Position numbers and translations under genes: made by a program
Shown here: positions 4,652-56,572 of the stretch, one piece after another
Numbering within the stretch: the stretch's first letter is position 1
How the letters are laid out: the number at the start of each line of letters is the position of its first letter
DNA from: an uncultured Gammaproteobacteria bacterium
GTDB taxonomy: Bacteria; Patescibacteriota; Microgenomatia; UBA8517
NCBI GenBank assembly: GCA_964568925.1
Contig: CAZMSJ010000001.1
Coordinates: forward strand, 1,115 to 65,114
Direction: 5' to 3'
DNA: 64,000 nucleotides
Notes under the pieces: generated by a model
What the model saw: the letters and a program-made list of their open reading frames with translations, nothing else
Told to the model about the DNA's origin: nothing
Database searches by the model: none

Positions 4652-4702
4652 TGCTTGCCATTCTAACGTGAAACATGTATACTCACAAACAGCTAAATTC
4701 AT

Positions 4703-4942: not shown

Positions 4943-5007
4943 CTCCTCGTTTCCACCCTGTTTTTACGTATCCTTTCTTTGCTATGATGGAGTAGTCGAT
5001 ACTGTCT

Positions 5008-27658: not shown

Positions 27659-27671
27659 ACATACCCCACCC

Positions 27672-40110: not shown

Positions 40111-40485
40111 CTAGCCACCCCAACTAAGAAACAAGAATATTAAACCTGAGATTCCGAATTTAACCGGATCAACAATCCCAAGTGTTGGGCTAAATGCCCC
40201 AATCATGATGTGAATCAACGCACCATGAATAATGATTCCCAAACCAACAGCCAAGGTGACAAATACAACAATGCATCCACAGCCGAGGCCCGCTTCTGTG
40301 CGTGCAATAACGGCAACAATGAGCAAAACTACGCCAACGATGAAGATGATCACACCAACGGTGGATAATCCATCATAAATGCTGGCAACTTTATTCAGAA
40401 AGTCATACACGCCAGCGGCACTGCTCATGTTTGTGCCAGTACCAGCAACTGATATAAACGCAACAATCAGGATTATCAGAGCCAT
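40111..40485 (-). CDS. Small polytopic membrane protein (124 aa), own promoter and terminator
   Basis: Three to four TM segments. GC higher than the genome background. Confidence 0.4.
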   Translation of the reverse strand: MALIILIVAFISVAGTGTNMSSAAGVYDFLNKVASIYDGLSTVGVIIFIVGVVLLIVAVIARTEAGLGCGCIVVFVTLAVGLGIIIHGALIHIMIGAFSPTLGIVDPVKFGISGLIFLFLSWGG

Positions 40486-40522
40486 TTTTACCCTCTTCCT
40501 TAGGAAAAATTTGCTGCAGAGT

Positions 40523-40551
40523 ATAATAACACATTATTGTTATGGGGTCAA
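40523..40551 (-). promoter_or_regulatory. Putative promoter TTGACC-17-TATTAT (minus strand)
   Basis: Reverse complement reads ttgaccccataacaataatgtgttattat, ~35 nt upstream of the 124-aa gene. Confidence 0.4.
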
Positions 40552-40642
40552 ATAAGATGAAGTAATATCAAGGACATAGAACTCACCATTGTGGTAAGCG
40601 CGACTGCTCTTCACGCCCACCACAATAGTGAGAAAAATAGAA

Positions 40643-40667
40643 AGAGGCGGATGTTTAGTCCGCCTCT
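40643..40667 (-). terminator. Terminator of island module A
   Basis: agaggcgga-tgtttag-tccgcctct. The minus strand has a T-rich tail after it. Confidence 0.5.
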
Positions 40668-40675
40668 ACGTTAGT

Positions 40676-41251
40676 CTAGAGCGTTGCCTGTAGCACACCC
40701 ATAAACTTTTCAATCAATACCTTTGCCTCCGACGCAAACATCATCGTTGTGTTTGCATCACAGACAAACCCGTTTCCGTCACTGTCATAAGACCATGCCC
40801 ATTCAGGCACAGGCATATTGACAATCCGTTCCGGCAATTCTACTTCGATATTGTTACTGCCCAGTCCTTTAAAAAACCGGGGTTCAATTCTTCCTGATGA
40901 AGAAACAGCTCCTGAAAGGGACGGCTGGTAGACTAGCTTACCGTCTACAATTTTCTCGTACCAAATGACCTTGGCGGGTTTGTCAAAAATCTGACCTGCG
41001 TAGCGAGGAAAAGGTTTGCGCTCTTCCATAAACAGGCCGCGAGAAACGACTATTTCTTCAGTCTCTGGCCCCCATTTGGATAAAACCGCATATAATAGTC
41101 CACTTCGCATCTGGAAATGCGGGTGTTTACCAACATCTGTAATGAAGACCAAATCGGCGGCTTTCGCAGCACGCTGAACCTCTTCATATGTCAACAACTG
41201 TTCTGCAGGACGGTTCTCTTTTATGAAATCATTCAATTGTTTGCTGTACAT
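40676..41251 (-). CDS. Island protein, member of a local paralog family (191 aa)
   Basis: The C-terminal ~105 aa aligns with the 157-aa protein at 43878..44351 (LPERIVNMPVPEWAWSYDSDGNGFVCDANTTMMFASEAKVLIEKF vs FPEPVVTLPIPRWVKVWVHGDYGACDAGAESIQMFKSEAERLATEF). Confidence 0.45.
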   Translation of the reverse strand: MYSKQLNDFIKENRPAEQLLTYEEVQRAAKAADLVFITDVGKHPHFQMRSGLLYAVLSKWGPETEEIVVSRGLFMEERKPFPRYAGQIFDKPAKVIWYEKIVDGKLVYQPSLSGAVSSSGRIEPRFFKGLGSNNIEVELPERIVNMPVPEWAWSYDSDGNGFVCDANTTMMFASEAKVLIEKFMGVLQATL

Positions 41252-41382
41252 CTTGCTCTCCTGTTAGTTGGGTTAACTATTAATAAAATATAGATTACTT
41301 TTGATACTTAAAATATTTTTTTTAAATACGAACGGAAAATAAATATATGGTGACGGAAGTAGTTCCGCCACCATTTTTTTGA

Positions 41383-41874
41383 TTAGCTCGGAAGCCAAAA
41401 ACCTTCGCGACGAGCTTTCCGAACAAACGAAATAGCTAAGAACACATCGAGTGAGCGGCTGCTATCCACCCACTCACCTTTAAAGAGGTTCTCTAGTTTG
41501 AGGGTGAAATCGTCTCCCCCCTTATCAGATAGCGTCAACCGATATTCGGTCACGCCAATTGATTGGGGGAAACCCGCAACTTTGAAACTTACAGACTCAC
41601 CGGCCTGCAGTTTCATCGCAGGAATTACGGTGACAAGTGCTTCATCAAACGAAGCAAAGGCTTCAACTTTCCACCAATTGGTACTAATGGCTAGAAGATT
41701 CCCTTCCTCGTCCTCCAAGGCACGATACACGATAAAGTCAGGTGACGGACAGACGTTAAGTTCTTTTGCCTCCTCCAAAGCATCATTTAGCGAATTTGCT
41801 TTCAAATTCACTCGAACCTCATTGTCACCTAGTTCGATCCAGTTCCCAAAGATAACTCCAACATAGGACGGCAT
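41383..41874 (-). CDS. Island protein (163 aa), N-terminus resembles N-terminus of the 157-aa paralog
   Basis: MPSYVGVIFGNW vs MPKPAFVSLGNL, and ...KVAGFPQ...KGG vs VVAGFQVKENKGG. Weak similarity. RBS aaggagaagaatc identical to that of gene 42384..42623. Confidence 0.4.
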   Translation of the reverse strand: MPSYVGVIFGNWIELGDNEVRVNLKANSLNDALEEAKELNVCPSPDFIVYRALEDEEGNLLAISTNWWKVEAFASFDEALVTVIPAMKLQAGESVSFKVAGFPQSIGVTEYRLTLSDKGGDDFTLKLENLFKGEWVDSSRSLDVFLAISFVRKARREGFWLPS

Positions 41875-42010
41875 GATTCTTCTCCTTATTAATCAAAGCT
41901 CATGTAGCTTATAAATTGAAATGCCTCACACAAAAGATATGTTTATATCTTCTGGGTGAGGCACTTTTACTCTCACAACATTCAAACAAGATTTAAATGC
42001 TGAATTGAGT

Positions 42011-42029
42011 CCCCCACATGAAGTGGGGG
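42011..42029 (-). terminator. Conserved intra-operon hairpin (copy A)
   Basis: cccccac-atgaa-gtggggg with conserved flanks gaattgagt...tatttt.agacg shared with the copy at 44466. Confidence 0.45.
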
Positions 42030-42052
42030 CTATTTTAGACGAAGAGATCAGT

Positions 42053-42352
42053 CTACTTCCAACCTAAATCCCAGCCATACCCATTTGCTGAGTATCTAGG
42101 TTTGCGGACTGTGCCGTCCGAAAGGACAAAAATCGGAGCGTTTAAAGTAGAGTCCCACTCTACTTTCATTACTTCAAGCTCCGCAGGCTTCGTTTGCGCA
42201 CAAACCACCATTTGAACAGACTTGATTGCGGCCCAATCCTCCGCAGTTGGACCTGCGGTCGGATGCTGGTCAGCCGAAAGTGTTTCGGCAGCTTTAAAGG
42301 CAAATTCCAAAACCTTTAAAAGCGCATTATTATCAACAGTTATCTGGCCCAT
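42053..42352 (-). CDS. Island small protein (99 aa)
   Basis: ORF between the leader gene and the conserved hairpin. No family recognised. Confidence 0.4.
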   Translation of the reverse strand: MGQITVDNNALLKVLEFAFKAAETLSADQHPTAGPTAEDWAAIKSVQMVVCAQTKPAELEVMKVEWDSTLNAPIFVLSDGTVRKPRYSANGYGWDLGWK

Positions 42353-42383
42353 GATATCTCCTTATCCTATATGTAAAATTAAA

Positions 42384-42623
42384 CTAATTATCCAGCCATT
42401 CAAAAAATCTCATAGCGGGGTAAATGGCAAGAATCCCCCCAAAAAGTCCGATAAAATTGAGATTCATCGGTAAAAACATTACCGCAAATCCAATACCCAA
42501 CAAAATTGGGGATCCGATCGCGATAATGGAAATAAGAAATGCACGGGCAATCTCCCCTTCAGGGTGCCCAGTAGGTACAACTGGGAAAAACTTTTTCCAA
42601 ATTTGGCGAATTTTAATACTCAT
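42384..42623 (-). CDS. Island small membrane protein (79 aa), first gene after conserved leader A
   Basis: Two TM segments. Start preceded by aaggagaagaatc and the 14-bp palindrome. Confidence 0.4.
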   Translation of the reverse strand: MSIKIRQIWKKFFPVVPTGHPEGEIARAFLISIIAIGSPILLGIGFAVMFLPMNLNFIGLFGGILAIYPAMRFFEWLDN

Positions 42624-42643
42624 GATTCTTCTCCTTGTGAGTT

Positions 42644-42657
42644 GGGCTCATGTGCCC
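42644..42657 (-). promoter_or_regulatory. Conserved leader/operator motif A: near-palindrome GGGCACATGAGCCC ~10 nt upstream of RBS
   Basis: 12/14 self-complementary. The identical 14-mer is at 44908-44921 in the same position relative to another operon start. Confidence 0.45.
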
Positions 42658-42723
42658 ATATGGATTTAGATTTCTTTTGATATTTAAAAGATTTTTAAAT
42701 ATGAAAGAAAAGTAAAAATTGTA

Positions 42724-42745
42724 GGGGAAGGTTGGCTCCTTCCCC
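42724..42745 (-). terminator. Terminator after the 305-aa gene
   Basis: ggggaagg-ttggct-ccttcccc. On the minus strand it is followed by acaattttt. Confidence 0.5.
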
Positions 42746-42758
42746 CAAAAACAATGAA

Positions 42759-43676
42759 CTACTTAATCAGGTGTTTCGAAACAATCTCGACAACCTGCTC
42801 GATTTTCAGGGTGCTATTTATACCCTGAGGGCTGCCACCAATCGTCGGCGAACCACCCCAACCGGCTTCCAATGCCGAAAGCTCAGTAAAAGCTGCCTTT
42901 AGGTCCAGGTACCCAGCTTCATACTGGCTTACCGTGAACTTTGAGTGCTTAGGCCCACCTTGGAATGAAAACTCACGATTCAAGGCAACGACGACCGGCG
43001 CTAACGAATATCCCACCATCGTCGCTGCGCGGTGAGTCGAAACGACTACCGCAATCTTTCCTTCAGTGCGATGAGTGATCGCACCACTTTCAAGAGCGGC
43101 GATCATGTCGCTGCGCTCTTTATCAACCTGTGCGCGGTATGCGCAAGGTTCCTCGCCAGTCAAGAGCCATTTTTCCATCCAGGCGACACGATCTGCAATT
43201 GCGACTTTGAAGTCTGCAACCGCTGCGGCAATCGCCGCCAGTTCGCGTGTATCTGACGCGCTGGCGTTCTTCTCAGGCCACGGGTTTTCCGTAGTAGGCA
43301 GTGGCTTCACGCCTGCCCAATGGCCACGAGCAAACTTATCGGCAGCTGCTACTCGGAGAATCCGAGCGACGGCTGCGGCAGAAAACTGCCCATTGCGGGA
43401 ACGAATTTCCAGAAGGGCCATTGCTCCAATAGAATCCAGGTCGGCACGAACTGTGACCAGGGTCGATCCCTCAACCGGCAACTCTACTGTCAGGGCTGCT
43501 TCAATTGCAGCCTGATCTGCGTTTTGTCCGCTGTGCTGGGGGTCAAGGTTCCCCAAACAGCACTGCGCAGCCAAGGCAGGAATCGTTACCTCAACACCAA
43601 AGGTGTTGGGACCAACTAGCAAGGCATTTGCCTCAGTACCAACAGGACGGGGGTCAAGGATTCCAAATTTAAACAT
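42759..43676 (-). CDS. GC-rich uncharacterised protein (305 aa), Ala/Gly-rich, no TM
   Basis: Intact ORF. GC ~55% in sampled 60-mers against ~35% in the flanks. Motifs CCLGNLDPQH, VRADLDSIGAMALL, GWGGSP. No confident family assignment. Confidence 0.5.
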   Translation of the reverse strand: MFKFGILDPRPVGTEANALLVGPNTFGVEVTIPALAAQCCLGNLDPQHSGQNADQAAIEAALTVELPVEGSTLVTVRADLDSIGAMALLEIRSRNGQFSAAAVARILRVAAADKFARGHWAGVKPLPTTENPWPEKNASASDTRELAAIAAAVADFKVAIADRVAWMEKWLLTGEEPCAYRAQVDKERSDMIAALESGAITHRTEGKIAVVVSTHRAATMVGYSLAPVVVALNREFSFQGGPKHSKFTVSQYEAGYLDLKAAFTELSALEAGWGGSPTIGGSPQGINSTLKIEQVVEIVSKHLIK

Positions 43677-43877
43677 GATTTCTCCACTGCTCTTGGGGTT
43701 GAACTTTTGTCAACACATCCTTTTGGCAGCGCGGATAGGCGCCATCGATTGCGCCCTCCAAGCTGCCATCAACAGAGAAAGAACGGTTTGGAGAGAAAAA
43801 TGTTTCTATCAATCTTGAATTTCTTCAAAACTGATTTGAAACAGGGGAAGATAATGAACCTTCCCCTAATTTGTCTA

Positions 43878-44351
43878 CTAAATGAGTTTTTTAAGCTCAT
43901 TCGTGAACTCAGTTGCGAGACGCTCGGCCTCTGACTTAAACATTTGGATAGATTCGGCACCTGCATCGCAGGCACCGTAATCCCCGTGTACCCAAACTTT
44001 CACCCAACGAGGTATCGGTAGGGTTACGACAGGTTCTGGGAATGAAACTTCCACCGCAGGGTACCCTGCCGCTTCCAAGACTCCAGGGATAATGCCTGGG
44101 GCGTTATGGTAAAACCCCAATGTAGGGGTATAACGAACGACGCCCAACTGAGCATCGATTTCTGCATTCCACGAAAAAGTAATACCCGAGTCAACCTGCC
44201 AAGTCTCACCCCAAGTGGCGGTGATAGACAACCCTCCTTTATTTTCTTTAACCTGGAACCCCGCCACTACAGCAGCAATTTTCAAATTACCAAGAGAGAC
44301 AAATGCAGGCTTCGGCATGTTGTTCGAGACGAAAGATGATAGTGTAGACAT
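43878..44351 (-). CDS. Island protein, paralog family member (157 aa)
   Basis: See 40676..41251. The true start may be MPKP at 44318. Confidence 0.45.
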   Translation of the reverse strand: MSTLSSFVSNNMPKPAFVSLGNLKIAAVVAGFQVKENKGGLSITATWGETWQVDSGITFSWNAEIDAQLGVVRYTPTLGFYHNAPGIIPGVLEAAGYPAVEVSFPEPVVTLPIPRWVKVWVHGDYGACDAGAESIQMFKSEAERLATEFTNELKKLI

Positions 44352-44465
44352 TTAAGACCCCTTATTACTTGATTAAATACAAAATTTCAAAACAGATTGT
44401 GTTTACAATATTTATATTTAATGCTCTCACAAACTTGAAACTCGCATTTCAAATTTGAATTGAGT

Positions 44466-44484
44466 CCCCCACACAAGGTGGGGG
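44466..44484 (-). terminator. Conserved intra-operon hairpin (copy B)
   Basis: cccccac-acaag-gtggggg then atttttct on the plus strand. Flanks are conserved with copy A. Confidence 0.45.
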
Positions 44485-44518
44485 ATTTTTCTAGACGGAG
44501 CCTCAGATATAAGCCCTT

Positions 44519-44887
44519 TTATTGAGAAATATCAGGAGGAAGTGGATATCCTCCGTGCTCCTCCATTTTGCTATCAGGAGACGCCGCAATAGCAGCGTCA
44601 ATTCGTTCACGCGCATTTAAGCTGAGGGAGAGCTCACGCAGGTTCATCTTCTTGATGTATCTGCGGTCAACGAGAATATCATTGCGAAGAGCATCATCTG
44701 CCCAAACAATGATACCCGGCTCATCACTTGGCGTGCTTCCTTCAAGCATTGCATACACCAAAATTAACGCTGGCCGGCGCCCACCGACGCACTTTTTCTC
44801 AAGATCAAAAACTCGAACACCGCTTTCAGAGATCTGAACCTTGTAACGGCCAACCACAACTACCTGCTCGTTTGAATTCTGTGCCAT
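44519..44887 (-). CDS. Island small protein (122 aa), first gene after conserved leader B
   Basis: ORF. Start preceded by aaggagaaaaatc and the 14-bp palindrome. Confidence 0.4.
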   Translation of the reverse strand: MAQNSNEQVVVVGRYKVQISESGVRVFDLEKKCVGGRRPALILVYAMLEGSTPSDEPGIIVWADDALRNDILVDRRYIKKMNLRELSLSLNARERIDAAIAASPDSKMEEHGGYPLPPDISQ

Positions 44888-44907
44888 GATTTTTCTCCTT
44901 AATGAGT

Positions 44908-44921
44908 GGGCTCATGTGCCC
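44908..44921 (-). promoter_or_regulatory. Conserved leader/operator motif B (GGGCACATGAGCCC)
   Basis: Identical to the 14-mer at 42644. A putative -10 TATACT lies 7 nt upstream on the minus strand. Confidence 0.45.
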
Positions 44922-44974: not shown

Positions 44975-45359
44975 CACTGGACCACATAACTGAGCTTGAA
45001 ATAGGTATTTTGAGGCTAATAATGAAGTGAAACACACATATTGTGCTTAAAAACGAGCTTAGTTAGCCTCATTTTTGAGTTCAAGAGCAGTTATGTGGCT
45101 CAAAACCTCGCTTGTAGGCGGGTTTTTTATAATGAGCTTTTTATGTGAATGAGCAGAATCCACTTACCTCTTCTCTGACTTTCGATAACTTATAATACAC
45201 CCCAAACCTATATTTGTCAAGTGGCAATGACAAATAATACTAAACCCTATCTCACAAACTACCCATTATTTGTACTCAAAAACAGGGGTGGATATCTACA
45301 TTCTTTCGCGTATGTCAAAACGTGTTGACAATTATTTTTAAACAGACTATTCTATATAA

Positions 45360-46148
45360 ATGATTGATGAAACGCTCAAAAAGATTGGATTATCAAACGA
45401 AGAAACTGAAGTGTATCTCTCTCTTCTAAACTCCGGGACCGCCAATGCCTCACAAATTGCTAAGCAGACGTCTGTAAAAAGAACAAATGTCTACAATATT
45501 TGCGATAGTCTTATTACGAAAGGACTTGTAACAAAGAAGGCTCTTGCTCGAGGCATGGCATTTACTCCACTATCTCCAGATCACCTTTCGCCACTAGCAA
45601 TTCAACTTGAACAACGAATACAAAATGCAATGACAAGCTTGGAAAATATTCTACCTTCACTTAAAGAGCAATATAAATTAATTGATGAAAGACCAATCAT
45701 TACTGTCTATGAAGGAATTGAAGGTTTAAAGAAAATTTACAAAAACATATTGGAGGAAAAAGATGATATTCTTCTTCTCCGCTCATACTATGATGATAAA
45801 AGAATAGATCTTGATGCAATTGTAATGGCGCAAATTAAAAATCAAGTGAAAAGCGGTATACACGTTCGAACAATAACTCCATTGGAGAATGCAACAAAGG
45901 AAGTTTTTTTTAAGCACGATACCCCTAATTTAGTAAAACGACATATCATTCATTCAACACAATTTGAACTTCCCTCACAAATTATTGTCTATAAAAATAA
46001 AGTAGCAATGATTTCACTGAAAAAAGATATTGTAGCTACTCTCATTGATAACAAAGACATTAGTGACACATTTCGAATGCTCTTTGATTTTATGTGGGAG
46101 AAAACAGAGAAAGAACATGAAGAGATTGTGGCTGAATGGAAAGATTAA
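45360..46148 (+). CDS. TrmB-family transcriptional regulator
   Basis: N-terminal wHTH LGLSNEETEVYLSLLNSGTANASQIAKQTSVKRTNVYNICDSLITKGLV is the TrmB signature. C-terminal effector domain. Confidence 0.6.
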   Translation: MIDETLKKIGLSNEETEVYLSLLNSGTANASQIAKQTSVKRTNVYNICDSLITKGLVTKKALARGMAFTPLSPDHLSPLAIQLEQRIQNAMTSLENILPSLKEQYKLIDERPIITVYEGIEGLKKIYKNILEEKDDILLLRSYYDDKRIDLDAIVMAQIKNQVKSGIHVRTITPLENATKEVFFKHDTPNLVKRHIIHSTQFELPSQIIVYKNKVAMISLKKDIVATLIDNKDISDTFRMLFDFMWEKTEKEHEEIVAEWKD

Positions 46149-48196
46149 AGTGAAGTTTTCCATCCAAGGGCCTTCGGTATTTTTTGTGTAAATCGCTTAA
46201 ACACTTCTTTATTTGACAACCCTTTTTCAAATAAGCCTTGCGTATGGTGTGATAGTCCGAGCTGTTGAAGTTTGTTAACAAAATCAGAGCCCCGAGTTCC
46301 AATATCAAGTGACAAGCCGTATTCATCACAATCAAGTCGTAGATTCACTTTCTTTCCTTCAGCTGACGCAGTGACCCCTAATCGTGATTGACCAGTTTCA
46401 TACTCCTCATCAACTGCCTCTGGTCGAACCGTAAAGGTAACACGAGATGAATCAGAAAAAACATACCGTGCTGAAACACTTGCGTGTTTCTCATCTAATT
46501 TAATTCCAGGATCTTCATGAAATGAAACAACGCCTTCTCCAGAAAAGCCGTTTGAAGCTGAATCAAGTGCTTTTGTGTATAAAGACATCGTGTCGAGTGC
46601 TTCAGTTACTCCTTCTTGCCCAAATTCTGTTGCAAGTAAAATAAAATGTTGTGACCTATATGCAAACGATTGTTTCATTCTCTCCAAAATTATCCGGTCG
46701 GTGTTTGACATGAGTTTTGTTGATTGTAATTTTTCAGTAAGTGTATCTACAAACCGATTTGAAGCATTTCGAATCTTTGTGTACTGCTCAATAACATTTT
46801 TTTGAATATCAGGTGACTGATTTGTTAAATGTAAAACACGGATATCAAGCTCTCCATTTAGATAGGCATCTGCAAAAAGTTGAGCTGAGTCTGGTGCAGT
46901 TTCTAATAGTTCACGTGCTCTGGAATCACCTTTTTTATCTAAGTCCTGAACAAGTAGCATCGCACTTATCTGCTCTGCTGGACTCAAATCAGTAAAGGAA
47001 GATCGCCCTTCTGAACTTAAGCTCGTGCGAAAATCCATAAGTGTTTGAACATGGTCACCAATCATAATCCTATCTTTTCTGGCTCCGCCATGATCCACAA
47101 AAAATGAACCTAATTGTGAAGGGTTAATGACATCAAATGAACCTTGTGGAACAAGCGTAAATGAACGATCTTCTCCTTTGTCATAGGTTATATGGCAATT
47201 TCTCATATTTTCGCTACTTACATGAGCACGAAAAGCGCAACGAACTTCACCATTTACTGATACTGCATATTGATCCTGATAAATTTTAACGACATCTCCA
47301 TCTTTATATTGTGATCCAATAGAGAATCTACGATTCCCAATATTAATTCTCCCATCTTTTGAAACTTTCCGTACCTCAACATCACGATTATGCTCTGAAA
47401 AGTCTTCGACCGAAAGCAATTCATTGCTTTCCCAAAATGTACCTTTCTCTTCCATAAACTTCGTGGGATTATCCCAATTTACATTGTCTGTACCACCTCC
47501 ACGTATTCCTTGACGTACAAACCACGCACCGGATAGCCGCTGTCTGCCTGCCTCAGGATTTCCTGGAATTGCATCCACAAACAAAACTCCACCCTCATTA
47601 CGTCTTCCATTTGCTCTCGCATATACCTCATATGGAATGGCTATATCAAGAAGCGAGGTTTTAGCTGCAAAATCAGACTCAACTGTGGGGTGTCTCCTAT
47701 CCCAATCCATAGGTCGTTCCCACATGCGAATATAGTGATCATTTTTATGCTTAGCAAATGTTTCTGGGGAAAACCCTTCCTTTTCGCTTGGAACAAAAAA
47801 CAGATTTCTCTTCTCAGAGGGTATTGATCCATCAAGGGCTTTAACCGTAACGGGTATCCCTTTAAAGGTCCAATATAATATTTCTGAAGGAGAAAGTGCT
47901 GTCTCTGTATAGTTTATAAGCTCTTGTGCTGAAGTCTTTAGATATGTTTTACGCTTTACGAATGAACCTTCTTTGTTTGTAAAGCCGCGAGTCAGGTAAT
48001 CAAGGTGATTAATAACAACAGAGTCAATATTATTTTGGTCATCTCTTTTAACTTCCAAAAAGCCACGTTGTTGAAAATTGGAGAGCGTTACCTCTTGTAA
48101 TCGCTGTAGTTCGGGATCTTCTGGCCGAGGTATAATTTCTGTTTCAAGAGGCTTCCTTATTTCTGTTTCTATTCTTGGTATTTCGTTATTTTCCAT
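46145..48196 (-). CDS. Large cytoplasmic protein of unknown function (683 aa), last gene of SBP-NTase operon
   Basis: Intact ORF, no TM. 11-nt gap to the upstream gene. No recognisable catalytic motif. Confidence 0.5.
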   Translation of the reverse strand: MENNEIPRIETEIRKPLETEIIPRPEDPELQRLQEVTLSNFQQRGFLEVKRDDQNNIDSVVINHLDYLTRGFTNKEGSFVKRKTYLKTSAQELINYTETALSPSEILYWTFKGIPVTVKALDGSIPSEKRNLFFVPSEKEGFSPETFAKHKNDHYIRMWERPMDWDRRHPTVESDFAAKTSLLDIAIPYEVYARANGRRNEGGVLFVDAIPGNPEAGRQRLSGAWFVRQGIRGGGTDNVNWDNPTKFMEEKGTFWESNELLSVEDFSEHNRDVEVRKVSKDGRINIGNRRFSIGSQYKDGDVVKIYQDQYAVSVNGEVRCAFRAHVSSENMRNCHITYDKGEDRSFTLVPQGSFDVINPSQLGSFFVDHGGARKDRIMIGDHVQTLMDFRTSLSSEGRSSFTDLSPAEQISAMLLVQDLDKKGDSRARELLETAPDSAQLFADAYLNGELDIRVLHLTNQSPDIQKNVIEQYTKIRNASNRFVDTLTEKLQSTKLMSNTDRIILERMKQSFAYRSQHFILLATEFGQEGVTEALDTMSLYTKALDSASNGFSGEGVVSFHEDPGIKLDEKHASVSARYVFSDSSRVTFTVRPEAVDEEYETGQSRLGVTASAEGKKVNLRLDCDEYGLSLDIGTRGSDFVNKLQQLGLSHHTQGLFEKGLSNKEVFKRFTQKIPKALGWKTSL

Positions 48197-48205
48197 AGTT
48201 ACATT

Positions 48206-49006
48206 CTACACTGAAATAACCCCATTCTTCTCTAGGCGCTTCATAACGACATCACCCCAATCAAATGGATGGAAATAAGCAAAATGGAAAGAAAAGACCT
48301 CTCGTGTCACTTTGTGATTCATATAGATAACTTGAAAGTAATATGCCAATACATTCAGTGGTATCAATAAAAACAAAAGACTCTGAGATACAAATGCTTT
48401 TGCTCTTCTAATTGTAATGGCGTTTGGCCAGTACGATAAAACCCATTTATTAGAAGATAGCCACCTCTCAAATGTATTTTTTTTATTGATGAGTGGAATT
48501 ACTTGGGCAACCTCGTGGGCGGTATAGGCATTACGTGGCATACAAGGTAAAGCAAGAGACTTTTCATCTAGCCAAACATTCAAACAAATCCGATCTTTTT
48601 CATCTTTCATAGAGGCTCTCCTCATCTTTACGCCAGAAGCAAGTAACAATAGAAGTGAAATGGCTCGTGTAATCCACAGAGAATGGGCACTCGTTATGAT
48701 CATGAAATCAATATCACTGGTTTCTTTTGCATTCTCCATTGCAAGGGAACCAGTAACACCAACAAACAAAATTGTAGGAATGTGTGAGAGAATTTTTGCA
48801 GCTTTTCGTGCAATCAAGAGCTTCTGCTTTTGAATTGCATCAAGCTTGTTTTGTTCACTCTTACTTAAGGGGGAAAGGTGTGGAGTTACGCTACCAGTTC
48901 TAAGTGTCAACTTGTCTCCGGCAGTCCACCGATGCAAGTTTTTCTTCGACAAATGAAAAGAAAAAAATGAATGATAGATAATTGAGATGCTGTCAGAAGA
49001 TTTCAC
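48206..49006 (-). CDS. Pol-beta-superfamily nucleotidyltransferase
   Basis: GVTGSLAMENAKETSDIDFMII matches the hG[GS]x9-13Dh[DE]h minimal NTase motif. Confidence 0.55.
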   Translation of the reverse strand: MKSSDSISIIYHSFFSFHLSKKNLHRWTAGDKLTLRTGSVTPHLSPLSKSEQNKLDAIQKQKLLIARKAAKILSHIPTILFVGVTGSLAMENAKETSDIDFMIITSAHSLWITRAISLLLLLASGVKMRRASMKDEKDRICLNVWLDEKSLALPCMPRNAYTAHEVAQVIPLINKKNTFERWLSSNKWVLSYWPNAITIRRAKAFVSQSLLFLLIPLNVLAYYFQVIYMNHKVTREVFSFHFAYFHPFDWGDVVMKRLEKNGVISV

Positions 49007-49009
49007 ACC

Positions 49010-50683
49010 TTACTTCTTAACAGCTGGAGGAGGAGCAATCAAGCGGAACTGGACTAATACGCTTTGAACACCGGCTGAAACCGTTTCGAGTACTGATTTT
49101 CCATCAGAAGCTGATGAGCCATTCATTGCGTTTACCCCATCTTCAAAATACTTAGATAGTTGTGAATTAATTCCAGATTGACCATCAAATGTTCGACTAG
49201 CCAAGTACCAACTCTTTGCATTTGTAGCAGTTGCAATTACGCCGTTTACCAATGGATCTGAAGCAATAAGCTCCTGCATATCTCGTCGTGGGTAGAGAGC
49301 TCCAAATGCTCGTACTGCTGTGGCGTTCTTGTACATCTTGGTCAAAGACTCTTTCTCAGACAAGAACTTCAAGAATTTCCAAGCCTCAGTTGAAACTTTA
49401 CTCTGAGAGTTAACACCTTCTACCCAATAGGTTGCGTATGCAATATCAGGGTCCTCTGCTGTTGCCTTTGGAAGTTGTGGAACAGGAACAACACGGAACT
49501 TTAAGGTAGGATTTTGCTGTCTAATTTCATGTGCTCTCCATGAAGGTCCGATGTACATTGCAACTTTTCCTGAAGCAAAGGCAATAGTTGAAGTTGGGAG
49601 GGTGTCATTCCACACACCATATTGCTTAGAGAAAGCAGTGTAGAACTTTAATGCTTGAATTGCGTTCTCCCCTGTTGGGTTTTTTAGGTCCACGCCATTT
49701 TGAATCATCATTAAAGCCAAAATCTCTTGCCAGTTATCAACATTAGCTGTTGTTCCCAAAGAGACACCAGCTTGTTTAATAACCCCTGCTTCATCTTTAA
49801 CCGTCATCTGTTGTGCTAAATCACGAACGTCATACCAGGTAACTGGTGTTGTCTGTCCATAAGTTGTGAAAATATCTTCATTAATGTAGAGCCCTAATCC
49901 GTCATACATTAATGGAATACCAACAAAACCTGAACCTGCAGCAAGATCTGATACAACAACTGGATAGAAAGTCTGAGTAAACTCTTGTGCACTCATCACT
50001 GAAGACGGCATTGTTGAAAGTCGTGAAGAGAACATTGGTACCCAGGTATTGTGGAATCGGAAGATATCAGGTCCATCACCCTTAGCCAGTGCGTTTGTGA
50101 GTCGTTCTCGATAGTCTTCCTTTGACTGCTTTACATATTTAATTTCAACTCCTGGGTTCTTTGTCTGATATTCAGTAATAAGAGGAGTAATAATAGAATC
50201 ATCTTCCCAAAGGCTCCACCAGGTAATAGTGGTCTTTCCACCTGGTAACTTGACTCCTCCACTAATGGCCGCAAACACCCCAACAACACCAAGGACCAAA
50301 ACAAGTAAGAACACAATTATTGCGAGTAACTTCTTTGGGAATTTTCTGCTTGGTGCAATTACCGGTGGTGGTGGAACAGGACTAGCTGACTGAGGGAATG
50401 GAGAGGTCGGTTGTGAACTACTTTCTGTGTTCGCGTTTGCAAGCAAGTCAGCTGGTGGCATATTGCCTTCTAAAGAAACAGTTGGCTGTGATGGTTCTCC
50501 TGAAGGGGTCGGCTCAGGCATAGACATTGGTGATGGTGTGGCTGGCATTGGCTCAGCAGGAGTCGCTGACGTGGCTTCAGGTGTCATTGGTGTCATCGGA
50601 GTCATAGGCGCAGTTGGAGGCGCATCAAAAGACTGAGATACAAAAGGGGAACTAGATTGGTTGGCAGAATTCTTCGGATCCAT
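49010..50683 (-). CDS. ABC-transporter family-1 (sugar-type) substrate-binding protein with Pro/Thr/Met-rich N-terminal tract
   Basis: PMTPMTPMTPEATSATPAEP low-complexity tract, TM anchor, then ITWWSLWEDD...EYQTKNPGVEIKYV typical of cluster-B/family-1 SBPs. Confidence 0.6.
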   Translation of the reverse strand: MDPKNSANQSSSPFVSQSFDAPPTAPMTPMTPMTPEATSATPAEPMPATPSPMSMPEPTPSGEPSQPTVSLEGNMPPADLLANANTESSSQPTSPFPQSASPVPPPPVIAPSRKFPKKLLAIIVFLLVLVLGVVGVFAAISGGVKLPGGKTTITWWSLWEDDSIITPLITEYQTKNPGVEIKYVKQSKEDYRERLTNALAKGDGPDIFRFHNTWVPMFSSRLSTMPSSVMSAQEFTQTFYPVVVSDLAAGSGFVGIPLMYDGLGLYINEDIFTTYGQTTPVTWYDVRDLAQQMTVKDEAGVIKQAGVSLGTTANVDNWQEILALMMIQNGVDLKNPTGENAIQALKFYTAFSKQYGVWNDTLPTSTIAFASGKVAMYIGPSWRAHEIRQQNPTLKFRVVPVPQLPKATAEDPDIAYATYWVEGVNSQSKVSTEAWKFLKFLSEKESLTKMYKNATAVRAFGALYPRRDMQELIASDPLVNGVIATATNAKSWYLASRTFDGQSGINSQLSKYFEDGVNAMNGSSASDGKSVLETVSAGVQSVLVQFRLIAPPPAVKK

Positions 50684-50730: not shown

Positions 50731-52497
50731 ATGACAAAAGTGCCGACAAACAACAAGCATAAAAAGATTCGTGCAACTCACATTGGGGCACTAACGATCT
50801 CAGTTGCTTCAGCTTCTCTTGCCCTCTTTATTATTGTAACAGCAGGACGTGTGTATCCACAGATCTATGTAGAACAAATTCCCGTTGGTGGTCTTTCATT
50901 GAAAGACGCACAAACTGCTATTGAAAATGCTACCTTTGCTGACTCATACCAAGCAATTAAAATCACCGTGCGATCAGGAGAGGAAGTAAAAGACTTCATG
51001 ATTCCCCTTTCAGAGATTGACGCAGTGTATGACAGTAAAGAGACCGCAGTGGCTGCATATGAATATGGGAAAGATCAAGGACTTGTTCACCAAATTAACG
51101 TTGGCCTCTCTCTCCTTCGCGAACGAAAAACAATTCCCTTTGTTGTTTCATTTAATGAAACACTCTTAAAAGAAAAGATTGCCCAAATTGCAGAACAAGT
51201 TGGTGAACCACATACCATCCCCAAGCTAACCATTGTTGGTAATGAAGTCACTGTTATCGATGGAACAAAAGGAATAGAAATTAACCAAGAAGAACTTACC
51301 GCACAGATTGAAACTGCAATTAAAAAACACACCTTTACCCCTATTACGGTCGAAACGGTAGTCGTTGACCCAACACTTGATCCAATTTCAAAAAAAGCAT
51401 TTGAAGAGAAAGGAAAGGCACTCGTAGGAAAGACACTCACGATTACCTTTGATACTGGAAAAATAAAACGAAGTGCACAGGACCTCGCCACAATTATTTC
51501 TCCTGAAGGAGTGCAGCAAACGGCGCTGGCTACATTTACCAAAGACATAGCAGAGCTAATTAATAGACCAGTAACAAACCCCGTGTTCACATTTGAAAAC
51601 GGGAAGGTAAAAGAATTTAAGGCACCTGAACCAGGACTCGAAGTGAAAGAGAATGAAATGAAAGCTCTTATCGCACGATCAGTTGAGACACTCATTCAGT
51701 CTGATACAAAAGAACTATCAATTGAAGCCACTGTGAGTAAGACTAACCCAACTGGAAACATTTCAGACATTAATAGTTTTGGCATCACTGAACAGATTGG
51801 TGTAGGAAACTCAACCTATCGTGGATCAATCCCTGGTCGTATACACAATGTGGCATTGGCCGCTTCAAAAATAAATGGAACACTACTTGCACCAAATGAA
51901 ACCTTTTCATTTAACAAAGTGGTAGGTGATATTTCACAAAAGACAGGATTTCAGCAGGCATATGTCATCTCTGGGGGAAAAACAATTCTTGGGGATGGTG
52001 GAGGAGTATGCCAAGTATCAACGACGCTCTTTCGTGCAGCAATGAATGCTGGACTCCCAATTGTTGAGAGACGACCACATAGCTACCGTGTTGGCTATTA
52101 CGAACAAGATGCAGGACCAGGACTTGATGCAACGGTATTCTCACCTACAACCGATTTCAAGTTTACCAACGACACCGGTCACTATTTGTTAATTCAAGCA
52201 ACGGTTGATAGCAAGAAGACAAGCCTTACGTTTAAGTTCTATGGAACAAGTGATGGAAGAGTAGCTGAAGTAACCAAGCCAGTGATTACAGATCAAATTG
52301 CGCCGCCAGAGGATCTCTATGTAGATGACCCGACGCTAAAGGTTGGACAAACAAAACAGGTTGAACATAAAGCATGGGGCGGACGATCAACCTTTACCTA
52401 CACCGTTAAACGAAATGGTGAAATAGTTACACAAAAAAAGTTTGTGAGTGTCTATCAACCATGGCAAGCGGTGTATATGCGAGGAACGGCACTCTAG
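50731..52497 (+). CDS. VanW-like domain protein
   Basis: N-terminal TM. C-terminal GGKTILGDGGGVCQVSTTLFRAAMNAGLPIVERRPHSY is the VanW core. Confidence 0.6.
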   Translation: MTKVPTNNKHKKIRATHIGALTISVASASLALFIIVTAGRVYPQIYVEQIPVGGLSLKDAQTAIENATFADSYQAIKITVRSGEEVKDFMIPLSEIDAVYDSKETAVAAYEYGKDQGLVHQINVGLSLLRERKTIPFVVSFNETLLKEKIAQIAEQVGEPHTIPKLTIVGNEVTVIDGTKGIEINQEELTAQIETAIKKHTFTPITVETVVVDPTLDPISKKAFEEKGKALVGKTLTITFDTGKIKRSAQDLATIISPEGVQQTALATFTKDIAELINRPVTNPVFTFENGKVKEFKAPEPGLEVKENEMKALIARSVETLIQSDTKELSIEATVSKTNPTGNISDINSFGITEQIGVGNSTYRGSIPGRIHNVALAASKINGTLLAPNETFSFNKVVGDISQKTGFQQAYVISGGKTILGDGGGVCQVSTTLFRAAMNAGLPIVERRPHSYRVGYYEQDAGPGLDATVFSPTTDFKFTNDTGHYLLIQATVDSKKTSLTFKFYGTSDGRVAEVTKPVITDQIAPPEDLYVDDPTLKVGQTKQVEHKAWGGRSTFTYTVKRNGEIVTQKKFVSVYQPWQAVYMRGTAL

Positions 52498-53806: not shown

Positions 53807-54434
53807 CAGTCTTTGTTTCAGTTGCTTCAGCTACAGGAGCTTCAGTCGCTGCAGGTGCTTCTTCAATGACTACTTCTTTCTGTGGTGCTTCGATCTTAAC
53901 AACAATCAAATCAGCATCAGTCAAAATTTCAACTTGCTTACTGTCCCCTGCAATATCTTTAACAAAAATTGCTTGGTCAACTTCTACAAGTGAAGTAATA
54001 TCGACGTCAAAATGATCTGGAAGTTCTGTTGGAAGAGCTTCAACTTCAATCTCGTCAATCTGTTGCATCAAGTTTCCGATTCCACTCTTTACTGCAGGGG
54101 ATTCTCCAATAACGTGTACTGGAACGGTAGCTTGAACCTTTTCCTTCAAGTTAACTTTGTGGAAGTCAATGTGGATTGTTTCACCAGTGATTGGGTGAAT
54201 TTGGAATTCAGTAACAAGAACAGGATATGTTTTGTCGTTAACGACAATATCAATAAGTCCAGTTTCTCCTGCAACTTTAAATACTTTCTTAAATTCCTTG
54301 AGGTTAACAGTGATTGCTTCTGACTCAATTCCCTTCGCAAAAATATTAGCTGGTACCAAACCTTCCTTGCGAAGGTTTTTAACAGCTCGCCCTACGATGG
54401 TTCGCTTTTCTGCTGTAATTGTTTGTCGTGTCAT
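53793..54434 (-). CDS. rplY: 50S ribosomal protein L25/general stress protein Ctc
   Basis: MTRQTITAEKRTIVGRAVKNLRKEGLVPANIF...IHPITGETIHIDF. Confidence 0.75.
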   Translation of the reverse strand: MTRQTITAEKRTIVGRAVKNLRKEGLVPANIFAKGIESEAITVNLKEFKKVFKVAGETGLIDIVVNDKTYPVLVTEFQIHPITGETIHIDFHKVNLKEKVQATVPVHVIGESPAVKSGIGNLMQQIDEIEVEALPTELPDHFDVDITSLVEVDQAIFVKDIAGDSKQVEILTDADLIVVKIEAPQKEVVIEEAPAATEAPVAEATETKTEEAK

Positions 54435-56572
54435 TTTTGTAGATTAAATATCTTACTGTCCGTAAGTGACGTATTATAAACGCCTACCCCCGCTGCGGTC
54501 AAGGAAAGCGTAAAAGGTGCTACCCCTGGCTGCTTAATCCAGTAGATTTGAGCTCGATTTTGTGGAGACTTGATTGACCAGTGAAAGCGAATTTCTGCCG
54601 TCTCCCCTGCTTCTACCGTCAAAAGTGCCCCCGCTGAGAGGTATTTCTCCTCGTGAGAGAGGTCAGGAATAACGGACCCGACCTTCTGTCGAGAGTTCAC
54701 TTTGATTGAGGTAACACTCGCCTCCTTTGGCAAAAGGAACCGTATGTAGCTTTTGTATGATTCATTTCCTTTGTTTTCATACCCTCCTGCGTGAGTCAGT
54801 GACAAAACAACATCTCCAGTCACACTGTCCCCTTCTTTAGCTACCGTCTCAGTAATCGTTCTACTAATATACGGATTTACCTTGTTTACCCCAACGTTTG
54901 CTTCAATAATCTGGTGAACGATAGAATTACAGCCTTCACCACAGCTTCCCTCTCGAAATGAACCAGACAATTGTGCGGTATCAATTGCTGACTCAAGACC
55001 ACTATCTGCAAACCACACCATGATCTCACGTGCACGGATCTGCTGATCAAGCTTTTTAGCCAGTTCAAGCATTTGTGGTCGTGAAAGGTTTGAAAGAGCG
55101 ATCATCACTGACTCTGAAAGAGCTGACAGATACGTCTTTTTGCGAATTGAGCCTGGGAAAAAGGTGTCCCCTCCTCGTCGTTCAAGCATTTTGTATAAGT
55201 TCTCTGCTGTCACTTCATCCTCTTCCCAGCCAACGGGATGCACAGGACCAGTTACGCTAAGGACTTCTGCAAGTACTCGAGTGTTTACGGCAATGATTGC
55301 GTCAGGCTTCACATCAATCGCCTTTTGCAAAAACCAACTAATGCGCGTTGCGGTACTTGGGAAATCGATATCCCAATTGGCGTCTCTCATATGCCAACTC
55401 GCCTCTTTCAAGTATTCAGAGATGGCAAAGGGAGGTTTTACATATCCATTAATCTTCCCATCAGCGTCGTAGACATCCTGAATTTCCTTGGAAATGACTC
55501 TCCCCGATTGAACCGTAACTAATTGATATGAACCAAAAAATCCACCGGTTGGGCGAAGCTCTGCTGCGTTTTGAAACATAATCATGTAGGTAAACGGTTT
55601 CCCCTGTCCAGCAAGCGTGCCAGCCTCTTTGGCCAATCCCTCTGCTGCCGGGAGAAATGAGAGAAGGTAGGGAAGATCTGCCTTTTGATTAATAATGCTT
55701 GCTGAAAGGACTTCTCCTCCGTTAGCTAAGAGAAATGAACCATCATGGTAGAGAGAAGACAAAAGAGGTGCGACACGTGCTCCCGTGTCTTTCCAATCAA
55801 TAGGGTTGCCGGAAAAGTAGTTGTGTGCAAGAGTTTCAATCTGGGTAAGTAACACCACACCAGTTCTTGTTACCTGAGCAGCTGAGGAGGAGAGGGCAGA
55901 GAGCGAAAGAAAGTAGGTGATCTGTGGCTTTAGAACAGGAAGCACTGTCAAGGGAGTCATGGTTAAGCGAGAAACAGAAGCAGCACTGGTTGAGAGTGAC
56001 GTTAAGCGTGTTGAGAGCGTGGTGTGATCTGGCAGTGCCTTAAGCGATAAGTACAACGACCCGACAGATACGCCGAGACTGACAAAGGGAATTGATAGGG
56101 AAACGAGAAGCACAAGAACTGCATAGATAAAGGGCTTTAAAGGTATGTGTTTTGTTTTGCTCCTTTGTTTGGTAACTGGTACAACAGGAGCCGCAACCTG
56201 ACGAGCAACCTCTGGGAGAGGAAGAATACGTGGCGTACCGATGACTACTTCTTTTAAATGTTTAAAGCCAAAGAGAGAACGGGTGGCAAGTTGATACTCT
56301 GATTCAGTTGGGTCTGCTCCAATAAGTAACACAGAAACAGTAGATGGAAGACTCGTGTGATCTATTGTTTCGTCTCGAAAGTGGGGAAGGATCAGTAAAA
56401 CGGGCGCGCCGGCAGGAACTAAAGAAAGGGCCGAGGCTTCAAGGCAAACAAAGACATCATGAGGCTGATGCTCAATATGTGCGGTATATGCCTTGAGTTC
56501 AAAATGACGACTTAAGTGATGTAAGAAGCCAAGCTGAAACGCGTGTTTTTCACCCACAAGATACAGATGCAT
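54431..56572 (-). CDS. Large membrane-anchored extracytoplasmic protein, DUF4012-like (assignment from memory, tentative)
   Basis: TM near residue 140. MFQNAAELRPTGGFFGSYQLV motif. Overlaps rplY by 4 nt. Confidence 0.35.
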   Translation of the reverse strand: MHLYLVGEKHAFQLGFLHHLSRHFELKAYTAHIEHQPHDVFVCLEASALSLVPAGAPVLLILPHFRDETIDHTSLPSTVSVLLIGADPTESEYQLATRSLFGFKHLKEVVIGTPRILPLPEVARQVAAPVVPVTKQRSKTKHIPLKPFIYAVLVLLVSLSIPFVSLGVSVGSLYLSLKALPDHTTLSTRLTSLSTSAASVSRLTMTPLTVLPVLKPQITYFLSLSALSSSAAQVTRTGVVLLTQIETLAHNYFSGNPIDWKDTGARVAPLLSSLYHDGSFLLANGGEVLSASIINQKADLPYLLSFLPAAEGLAKEAGTLAGQGKPFTYMIMFQNAAELRPTGGFFGSYQLVTVQSGRVISKEIQDVYDADGKINGYVKPPFAISEYLKEASWHMRDANWDIDFPSTATRISWFLQKAIDVKPDAIIAVNTRVLAEVLSVTGPVHPVGWEEDEVTAENLYKMLERRGGDTFFPGSIRKKTYLSALSESVMIALSNLSRPQMLELAKKLDQQIRAREIMVWFADSGLESAIDTAQLSGSFREGSCGEGCNSIVHQIIEANVGVNKVNPYISRTITETVAKEGDSVTGDVVLSLTHAGGYENKGNESYKSYIRFLLPKEASVTSIKVNSRQKVGSVIPDLSHEEKYLSAGALLTVEAGETAEIRFHWSIKSPQNRAQIYWIKQPGVAPFTLSLTAAGVGVYNTSLTDSKIFNLQK

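Follow-up and report, generated by a model that had tools for sequence, protein, structure and literature searches.

A substrate-binding protein and nucleotidyltransferase pair beside a TrmB-like regulator and its convergent partner in a 64-kb Patescibacteria sequence

The locus and its gene neighbourhoods

The window, by which we mean the whole 64-kb stretch of contig CAZMSJ010000001.1 analysed here, has a gene content that points to a Patescibacteria genome, and it carries three closely packed minus-strand genes that encode a substrate-binding protein (SBP), a nucleotidyltransferase (NTase) and an uncharacterised protein of 683 amino acids (unk683). A fourth gene, on the plus strand, encodes a TrmB-family regulator (TrmB-like). 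An earlier description made from the letters alone (below, the sequence-only reading) had proposed that the three minus-strand genes might form a single odd unit beside a TrmB-family regulator; we favour, with moderate confidence, a juxtaposition of two independent two-gene modules, A (SBP and NTase) and B (unk683 and TrmB-like). The four open reading frames (ORFs) were re-derived at exactly the positions first listed:

45360-46148, plus strand: TrmB-like gene, 262 aa
46145-48196, minus strand: unk683, uncharacterised protein, 683 aa
48206-49006, minus strand: NTase, 266 aa, GTG start
49010-50683, minus strand: SBP, 557 aa

The originally described layout thus stands, with gaps of 3 nt between SBP and NTase and 9 nt between NTase and unk683, and with TrmB-like and unk683 convergent and overlapping by 4 nt at 46145-46148. 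The start codons of NTase, unk683 and TrmB-like are backed by N-terminal conservation among homologues. At the SBP-NTase junction AAGG stands directly 5' of the GTG, and inspection of the window copy found no recognisable Shine-Dalgarno sequence before the unk683 ATG. Read-through co-transcription of the three minus-strand genes is plausible given their tight packing.

Neighbourhoods of module A were compared in eight Patescibacteria genomes, namely the window, its relatives L001, L002 and L004 (the window's lineage) and the distant L006-L009, which were chosen as four NTase homologues (~40% identical) on long contigs of different genomes. The module-B sample comprises nine contexts, eight of them independent: the window, L001, L002, L004 and five distant members of the unk683 family.

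The SBP and NTase genes abut in 8/8 genomes, where the offset of the NTase start from the SBP stop is -38 to +18 nt, and a VanW gene is divergent from the SBP gene in all eight. The order at L006-L009 is TsaD and VanW reading one way and, divergent from them, SBP, NTase, no or one small ORF, GroES and GroEL; neither an unk683 nor a TrmB gene is present at any of these four loci (0/4) by gene context and local hidden Markov model searches. In L001, L002 and L004 the whole block is syntenic with the window. The tightly abutting SBP-NTase pair is an old component of a conserved Patescibacteria block of TsaD, VanW, SBP, NTase and groES/groEL, among whose housekeeping genes is also that for leucyl-tRNA synthetase (LeuRS). 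In the window the remaining neighbours are as follows:

50731-52497, plus strand: VanW-type gene with a transmembrane anchor, PG_binding_4 (E=6.9e-21), VanW (E=1.6e-45) and G5 (E=3.7e-5)
39661-39960, minus strand: groES
38021-39649, minus strand: groEL

The product of 50731-52497 is probably a peptidoglycan L,D-transpeptidase. Its arrangement of transmembrane anchor, PG_binding_4, VanW and G5 matches that of Clostridioides difficile Ldt4, a VanW-domain L,D-transpeptidase whose activity has been demonstrated experimentally (PMC10980060); the same paper notes that VanW domains are fairly frequent among Patescibacteria.

In 9/9 contexts the 3' end of the unk683-family gene meets a convergent TrmB-like gene, the two overlapping by as much as 54 nt or standing as much as 12 nt apart. 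The five distant contexts are the following:

P0124 (L010): 27-31% identity to unk683; 4-nt overlap with the TrmB gene; contig ends upstream
P0126: 24% identity to unk683; 54-nt overlap with the TrmB gene; AbiEii upstream, PIN toxins nearby
P0130 (L017): 22-25% identity to unk683; 12-nt gap to the TrmB gene; small ORFs upstream
P0181 (L018), GNAT type: 16-22% identity to unk683; 29-nt overlap with the TrmB gene; UPF0102, four tRNA genes and an integrase
P0164 (L019), methyltransferase type: 5-nt gap to the TrmB gene; type IV secretion system (T4SS) pilins upstream

The upstream genes of these contexts are unrelated, and SBP or NTase genes are found in 0/5. Identities of regulator and partner (63/48, 61/36, 67/31, 52/25 and 24/22%) show that the regulator tracks its partner and stays the more conserved of the two. 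Genome and metagenome scans that used TrmB-like as the query recovered only regulators of 23-36% identity, which have no unk683 neighbours. The three-gene arrangement that the sequence-only reading proposed to check for conservation is thus retained only within the window's narrow lineage (L001, L002 and L004). What survives of the odd unit is the SBP-NTase pair without a transporter, seen in 8/8 genomes; unk683, missing from the four distant genomes, falls outside it, and the regulator that had been associated with the SBP has the unk683 family as its constant partner. Module B is lineage-specific and lies in the NTase-groES junction beside a strain-variable island (below). In 4/4 lineages that carry the insertion (window, L001, L002 and L004), the NTase-unk683 spacer (48197-48205 in the window) is exactly 9 nt long.

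Several minor features of the distant contexts may be recorded. Two unrelated contexts have a bpMoxR-type AAA+ gene past the divergent side of the TrmB-like gene, ~1.5-2.7 kb away:

L018, 12540-13625: bpMoxR-type AAA+ ATPase gene
L019, 12447-13694: bpMoxR-type AAA+ ATPase gene

L018 has three TrmB-family genes within 18 kb, together with its four tRNA genes (6827-7779) and integrase (4181-5056). The regions upstream of the TrmB-like genes are each structured, and a shared structured RNA was not found among them; they gave only two short sequence matches, between L017 and L019, and no Rfam match.

Module A: the substrate-binding protein and the nucleotidyltransferase

The SBP matches Pfam SBP_bac_8 (E=6.5e-28) and SBP_bac_1 (E=3.6e-26), and the PDB sequences closest to it are those of sugar and maltose SBPs (4qrz, 4r9f and MalE types), with E down to 5e-18 over residues ~150-490, so the earlier assignment to the family-1 sugar-type SBPs holds. 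Its first 112 aa form a Pro-rich tail, after which come a basic patch (RKFPKK), a single transmembrane segment (~aa 117-140) and the SBP domain (aa ~150-490); that is, it has a membrane anchor with the N-terminus inside and an extracytoplasmic SBP domain, and a free periplasmic protein was rejected on these grounds. A Pro-rich tail of 40-116 aa, a basic patch and a single transmembrane segment are kept in all seven SBP loci analysed (7/7). The positive-inside rule predicts that the tail is in the cytoplasm, an uncommon arrangement among SBP anchors. The tails from the window, L001, L002 and L006-L009, all N-terminal to the transmembrane helix, are 19-33% Pro and rich in Ser and Thr.

With its two-lobed SBP_bac_1/SBP_bac_8 domain outside the membrane, the protein is a bona fide CUT1-type SBP, and it shares with the MalE-type proteins the full-length domain, the sugar-SBP matches in the PDB and the extracytoplasmic location. 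It differs from them in three respects: no cognate permease pair or ATPase is encoded alongside (in 64 kb here or at seven related loci), its N-in transmembrane anchor stands behind a Pro-rich cytoplasmic tail of 40-116 aa, and members of its family are always followed by a Pol-beta NTase gene, with the VanW L,D-transpeptidase-like gene divergent on the other side. The LSGGQ signature of ABC ATPases is absent from every ORF of at least 120 aa in the window. Eleven window ORFs have multiple transmembrane segments, and no BPD_transp_1 or other ABC permease was found among them; they are MurJ, a PMT-type glycosyltransferase, GT2, GT4, UbiA, Wzy_C, YidC and four others, three of which have no Pfam match, while the fourth, a short ORF of 152 aa, lay outside the Pfam scan. 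Nor does an ABC permease or ATPase gene lie within ~7-10 kb of the SBP gene in the seven related genomes among L001-L009. The sequence-only reading was therefore right that no such genes are near, and the adjacent transporter genes that would have spoken against its proposal were not found within reach.

The NTase gives weak Pfam matches over residues 67-109 (NTP_transf_2, E=9e-5, 23.2 bits against a cut-off of 21; Polbeta, E=1.6e-5). Its family, which is Patescibacteria-wide, counts at least 277 full-length homologues of ~40% identity; the closest named homologue, from "Candidatus Woesebacteria", is 95% identical. First described as "minimal", it is in fact a three-part protein of 266 aa with a small N-terminal domain, a core (G86-S87...D98-x-D100) and a C-terminal helical region, and its AlphaFold2 (AF2) model has a mean predicted local distance difference test score (pLDDT) of 94. 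In the homologue alignment G86, D98, D100, H164 and E165 are among the invariant residues, and S87, D138 and D147 are nearly invariant. The features that define the Pol-beta superfamily, the motif hG[GS]x9-13Dh[DE]h and a third carboxylate on an alpha-beta-alpha-beta-alpha-beta core, are all found in it.

Foldseek recovers only the core fold of AAD(9), ANT(4'), MntA and AadA (TM-score ~0.3). Window NTase and the ANT(4'), AAD(9), AadA, LinB and MntA-type enzymes have in common the Pol-beta core G-S...D-x-D with a long helix before it and a helical region after it; although these are the top Foldseek and weak profile matches, the TM-scores of ~0.3 and sequence E values of at least 0.05 set them apart. 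The window protein has in addition a conserved N-terminal domain (YH..F.YPL motif) and lacks a HEPN partner, and its gene is a core syntenic Patescibacteria gene, not a resistance or toxin-antitoxin gene. Membership of the MNT-HEPN (type VII) antitoxins was rejected, since the MntA model gives 16.3 bits where 60 are required, the protein has 266 aa where those have ~100-140, and in the eight genomes its neighbours are SBP and GroES or unk683 and never a HEPN gene. We thus assign it, by its motifs and predicted fold, to the Pol-beta superfamily, where it is neither an MNT antitoxin nor a close relative of the antibiotic NTases. A search of the available literature found no paper that connects SBPs of the candidate phyla radiation (CPR) to NTases, nor any that connects TrmB to Patescibacteria.

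Module B: the TrmB-like regulator and the unk683 family

PF01978 recognises TrmB-like with 55 bits (cut-off 25.6; E=7.1e-15), over residues 6-61 only. Scores for the NCBIfam equivalogs are 34 bits for TrmBL1 (cut-off 650), 29 for TrmB-Halo (cut-off 500) and 22.5 for TrmB (cut-off 600), and the alignments to these models span residues 4 to ~135. For the C-terminal domain there is no Pfam match and a PDB sequence search returned noise only; a sugar-binding domain was not detected. The one PADLOC match of TrmB-like is to the generic winged helix-turn-helix of Csa3/CasR. The protein thus has the winged helix-turn-helix of the TrmB family and neither the effector domain nor the full equivalog score of a sugar-sensing orthologue, and promoter control over an adjacent sugar ABC or glycolytic operon, as exerted by TrmB and TrmBL1, is not seen. 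It resembles TrmB/TrmBL1 of Thermococcales and Halobacteria in its N-terminal winged helix-turn-helix, the long helix that follows and its probable binding to a palindrome at a promoter, and differs from them in length (262 aa vs ~340), in having no match to the sugar-binding C-terminal domain and in standing beside a convergent unk683-family gene, its constant partner, instead of an ABC transporter operon. By these comparisons it is a TrmB-family winged helix-turn-helix protein, not an orthologue of TrmB.

The palindrome TGTCA-N8-TGACA occurs twice in the 64 kb, where 0.12 copies are expected, and both copies fall in a 472-nt stretch without ORFs that precedes the TrmB-like gene, each on a -35 box. 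Promoter and terminator scans gave counts no higher than the shuffled expectation, and only promoter-like sites that overlap the palindromes were used:

45313-45330, no strand: putative operator O1, TGTCAAAACGTGTTGACA (TGTCA-N8-TGACA), overlaps the -35 box of the TrmB-like promoter-like site
45325-45353, plus strand: TrmB-like promoter-like site, TTGACA-17-TATTCT
45215-45232, no strand: putative operator O2, TGTCAAGTGGCAATGACA, overlaps the -35 box of the leftward promoter-like site
45220 to 45192, minus strand: leftward promoter-like site, TTGACA-17-TATTAT, 11/12 matches

The TrmB-like ATG lies 7 nt past the -10 box and has no Shine-Dalgarno sequence, which suggests that its mRNA is leaderless. 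TGTCA-N8-TGACA recurs ~30 nt upstream of the start of the partner regulator in L001, L004/5 and L018, with one mismatch upstream of the L019 regulator, and a counterpart of O2 is present in L004/L005; the L018 regulator is only 24% identical to that of the window, yet the motif is kept. Even with one mismatch allowed, there is no copy near the SBP/VanW intergenic region, the NTase start or the unk683 start. TrmB-like therefore looks like an auto-regulated repressor that would also control the divergent leftward transcript. With both operator candidates lying upstream of the regulator's own gene, and with no sugar-binding domain detected, the proposal that a sugar-responsive TrmB controls the SBP gene does not fit these data, and nothing detected in the regulator ties it to sugar transport. 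No terminator-like site was found in the scan between TrmB-like and unk683.

The description of unk683 as an unannotatable cytoplasmic protein was borne out, as it has no match in Pfam, NCBIfam, PDB sequences, PADLOC or PHROG and, because it has neither a transmembrane segment nor a signal peptide, is predicted to be cytoplasmic. It has only three close homologues among 5.8 billion proteins, and a family-profile word-index search returned the same three; an exhaustive profile search of 1.8 billion proteins enlarged the family to 92 cluster representatives, with E<1e-30 for 18. Its AF2 model (31-sequence alignment) has a pLDDT of 88 and a predicted TM-score (pTM) of 0.62, and Foldseek found no match for it in the PDB (best E=0.05, TM-score <=0.11) and none in BFVD. 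The family is built of two parts:

46532-47884, minus strand: conserved N-module, aa ~105-555, common to GNAT- and methyltransferase-bearing relatives
46148-46531, minus strand: C-terminal domain, aa ~556-683, beta-meander and helices

The N-module is best conserved over aa ~110-330 (GNGxRD...G.L.V, W225, GLL..DF, G282 and G294), and its invariant polar residues are few (R199, D265 and Y472). Distant members of the GNAT and methyltransferase types align only with unk683 residues ~105-590, and in 12/20 distant members tested a C-terminal GNAT (seven) or class-I S-adenosylmethionine (SAM) methyltransferase (five) was found at residues ~600-920, in the same place as the window-type C-terminal domain. 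The latter is present in ~30/92 representatives; in it R591, D622 and D631 are invariant, P592, S629, H651 and F666 are nearly so, and there is an HHTQ motif. It has no Pfam match (25 members) and no PDB match (profile search), and these searches likewise gave no support for a degenerate GNAT or another known domain. A GNAT or SAM methyltransferase catalytic domain was not found in window unk683 by Pfam, with either the full protein or the isolated C-terminal domain.

Proteins of comparable build include the protein acetyltransferase Pat/PatZ, a large N-domain joined to a GNAT, and TlyA, an S4 domain joined to a methyltransferase. Members of the unk683 family resemble them in combining a large, constant, non-catalytic N-module with a C-terminal GNAT or class-I methyltransferase; they differ in that their N-module resembles neither protein in sequence or fold, that window unk683 carries a novel C-terminal domain instead of a GNAT or methyltransferase, and that an obligatory convergent regulator marks the unk683 family and is not known for those enzymes. 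An S4 RNA-binding domain in the N-module was considered and rejected (a RluF S4 match at E=0.62 only, and 0/27 N-modules matching Pfam S4 at E up to 5).

Other candidates were set aside as well. A glycoside hydrolase, which would have made the 683-aa protein a common enzyme, is not indicated by any Pfam, NCBIfam, PDB or Foldseek match, so that in neither domain nor fold does unk683 look like one. An exceptionally fast-evolving protein is not indicated either, as the divergence of unk683 (49% and 37% identity), though fast, does not exceed that of DUF4012 or VanW in the same block. A phage or plasmid origin of module B was rejected when tblastn of phage and plasmid collections, and IMG/VR, gave no match. 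Among PADLOC-DB v2 defence models, unk683 and the GNAT-type relative P0181 have 0 matches.

Interpretation of the locus and the NTase-groES junction

SBP-NTase pairs occur without unk683, and unk683-TrmB pairs without SBP, so the apparent three-gene operon is best explained as module A followed by an inserted module B. Under this two-module reading, for which our confidence is moderate as stated above, unk683 would combine a conserved N-terminal target-recognition module with an exchangeable C-terminal effector; as its relatives carry a GNAT or methyltransferase in that position and the window domain has an invariant R/D/D and a nearly invariant H, it would most likely be a group-transfer or other modifying enzyme that acts on some substrate. 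TrmB-like would be a dedicated repressor, auto-regulating through TGTCA-N8-TGACA on the -35 boxes of its own and the divergent leftward promoters. Because no terminator-like site separates the two genes, it may affect unk683 through the obligatory 3'-overlapping convergent transcription and not through a promoter operator.

Several observations weigh against this reading or parts of it. The SBP-NTase adjacency lies within a larger block that holds unrelated housekeeping genes (TsaD and GroES/EL), and therefore adjacency by itself is no proof that module A is a functional one. In L001, L002 and L004 the SBP-NTase-unk683 gaps are kept at 1-18 nt and 9 nt, and the three genes may thus be co-transcribed in the window's lineage with a functional link that was acquired secondarily. 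The window-type C-terminal domain, whose catalysis is putative, has neither a fold nor a sequence relative, and it bears a weak Foldseek resemblance to the non-enzymatic p32/Mam33 proteins. The operators are putative sites recognised in the nucleotide sequence only. Finally, the module-B neighbourhoods amount to nine contexts (eight independent) vs 92 cluster representatives, and among the nine L001, L002 and L004 share the synteny of the window.

The alternative that survives best, and which we rate as only somewhat less than an even chance, is that module A is ordinary, the SBP serving a sugar ABC transporter whose permease and ATPase are encoded remotely and the NTase being a functionally unlinked housekeeping neighbour. 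The SBP is indeed a full-length CUT1-type protein that is correctly anchored outside the membrane and whose best matches are genuine sugar SBPs; shared or remote ATPases and permeases are known in CUT1 systems; and a block that also holds the unrelated TsaD, LeuRS and GroES/EL may reflect synteny and not function. However, no permease or ATPase gene was found in 64 kb here or within ~7 kb in seven other genomes, the SBP-NTase junction is held at -38 to +18 nt in 8/8 genomes across ~40% protein identity, and every SBP has the unusual Pro-rich cytoplasmic tail.

A more ambitious joint reading of both modules is tentative, at something like one chance in a few. According to it unk683 and TrmB-like would form an undescribed, Patescibacteria-restricted conflict, defence or self-modification system of episymbionts, in which the constant recognition module of unk683 is fitted with interchangeable effectors (GNAT, SAM methyltransferase or the new R/D/D/H domain) and is restrained by the auto-repressed, short TrmB-like regulator together with 3'-overlapping convergent transcription; SBP-NTase would be a transporter-independent envelope sensor in which the cytoplasmic NTase acts on the Pro/Ser/Thr-rich cytoplasmic tail of the SBP.

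Slightly less probable still is the narrower proposal that module B is a conflict system, either anti-phage defence or a toxin with its controller, in which unk683 is a toxic effector that is kept silent by TrmB-like until triggered and whose C-terminal domain (GNAT, methyltransferase or the novel one) would modify some macromolecule of host or invader. Neighbours in accessory regions (AbiEii, PIN toxins, an integrase with tRNA genes, and bpMoxR) hint at such a role in a small sample, and the variable surroundings in which module B is found, among them the adjoining island here, the exchangeable C-terminal effectors on a constant N-module, the dedicated auto-regulated winged helix-turn-helix partner and the patchy distribution (only three close homologues in 5.8 billion proteins) would all suit it. 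Against it stand the lack of any PADLOC or PHROG match and of any phage, plasmid or IMG/VR occurrence, the stable vertical inheritance at one locus in the window's lineage with divergence no faster than that of DUF4012 or VanW, and the convergent orientation, which is atypical of toxin-antitoxin pairs; it is, moreover, guilt by association from a handful of contexts.

That unk683 is non-enzymatic, a scaffold or sensor that binds TrmB-like as an anti-repressor or co-regulator with a ligand-binding C-terminal domain, we regard as improbable. The regulators do diverge in step with their partners, invariant polar residues are scarce in the N-module (R199, D265 and Y472) and the C-terminal sheet is weakly like that of the non-catalytic p32/Mam33, but co-divergence is expected from plain co-inheritance too, relatives bear bona fide catalytic GNAT or methyltransferase domains at the equivalent position, and an invariant R/D/D with a nearly invariant H is typical of an active or metal site.

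The sequence-only reading itself, in which SBP, NTase and unk683 form one co-transcribed signalling or modification unit under a sugar-responsive TrmB, could point to the 3- and 9-nt spacing on one strand, to an arrangement kept in three related lineages while unk683 falls to 36% identity and to 64 kb without transporter genes, but it is very improbable and largely refuted by the neighbourhood data, since that retention is whole-block synteny in one narrow lineage, SBP-NTase lacks unk683 and TrmB in 4/4 distant genomes, the unk683 family and TrmB lack SBP and NTase in 5/5 other contexts, and the regulator shows neither a detectable sugar-binding domain nor any operator in the vicinity of the SBP promoter.

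The two-module reading corrects a tempting mis-annotation, as a TrmB-family match beside an SBP gene is here no sign of a sugar regulon. Most Patescibacteria have not been brought into culture, and the bulk of their lineage-specific proteins lack annotation; the two modules offer two handles on the biology of these bacteria. Module B is previously undescribed, and the functions of both modules are ones that we infer. Although unannotated lineage-specific families are common in Patescibacteria, that of unk683 stands out by its modular architecture and its regulator-operator pair, and it joins a confident model to domain swaps and to the absence of a structural match in the PDB or BFVD. An invariable private regulator, an operator and an effector domain make module B experimentally tractable in a surrogate host. 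In module A, a core-conserved SBP-NTase pair without a transporter beside a VanW-type gene may point to sensing of the envelope or of host glycans in cell-attached bacteria.

The NTase-groES junction, which in other Patescibacteria spans from 55 nt to one small ORF, appears to be an insertion hotspot filled here by module B and an island, and such a hotspot can be mined for accessory genes in Patescibacteria. Two features lie between groES and the putative operators:

40131-44884, minus strand: strain-variable island, eight small ORFs between groES and the module-B regulatory gap
44975-45135, no strand: long imperfect hairpin of ~120 nt with a terminator-like stem and T-run (plus strand), in the ORF-free gap between O2 and the island

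The flanks of the island are 95-97% identical to strain L004 and the interior is replaced; its ORFs have no Pfam, PADLOC or PHROG match, and L004 has two Lactamase_B_3 genes and an IS1595 transposase in their place. The right-hand break (44884) is at the start codon of ORF 44519-44887, so that the promoter and leader are conserved and the coding cassette is swapped. Within the island a 5' untranslated region and ribosome-binding site (RBS) segment occurs twice (42621-42657 and 44885-44921, 81% identical), as does a GC-rich terminator-like hairpin (41991-42035 and 44446-44490, 80% identical), and these repeats suggest that the island is made of cassette-like units, each with promoter/RBS, gene and terminator. 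Two of its ORFs, 40676-41251 and 43878-44351, are paralogous (33% identity over 89 aa).

The hairpin at 44975-45135 has no Rfam match, occurs once in the window and is conserved in L004. Its minimum free energy is -54.3 kcal/mol (z = -6.05; 0/200 shuffles as stable); it could be a small RNA, a leader or a recombination element.

Beyond the block, the window is rich in envelope-biogenesis genes (MurJ, PMT, GT2, GT4, UbiA, Wzy_C and DUF4012), which are listed here with the three multi-transmembrane ORFs that have no Pfam match:

2951-4702: MurJ
9914-12370: PMT-type glycosyltransferase
12279-13478: multi-transmembrane ORF, no Pfam match
27408-29165: GT2
29184-30641: multi-transmembrane ORF, no Pfam match
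31004-32083: GT4
31915-32985: UbiA
34007-34801: multi-transmembrane ORF, no Pfam match
54431-56572: DUF4012
57154-58326: Wzy_C

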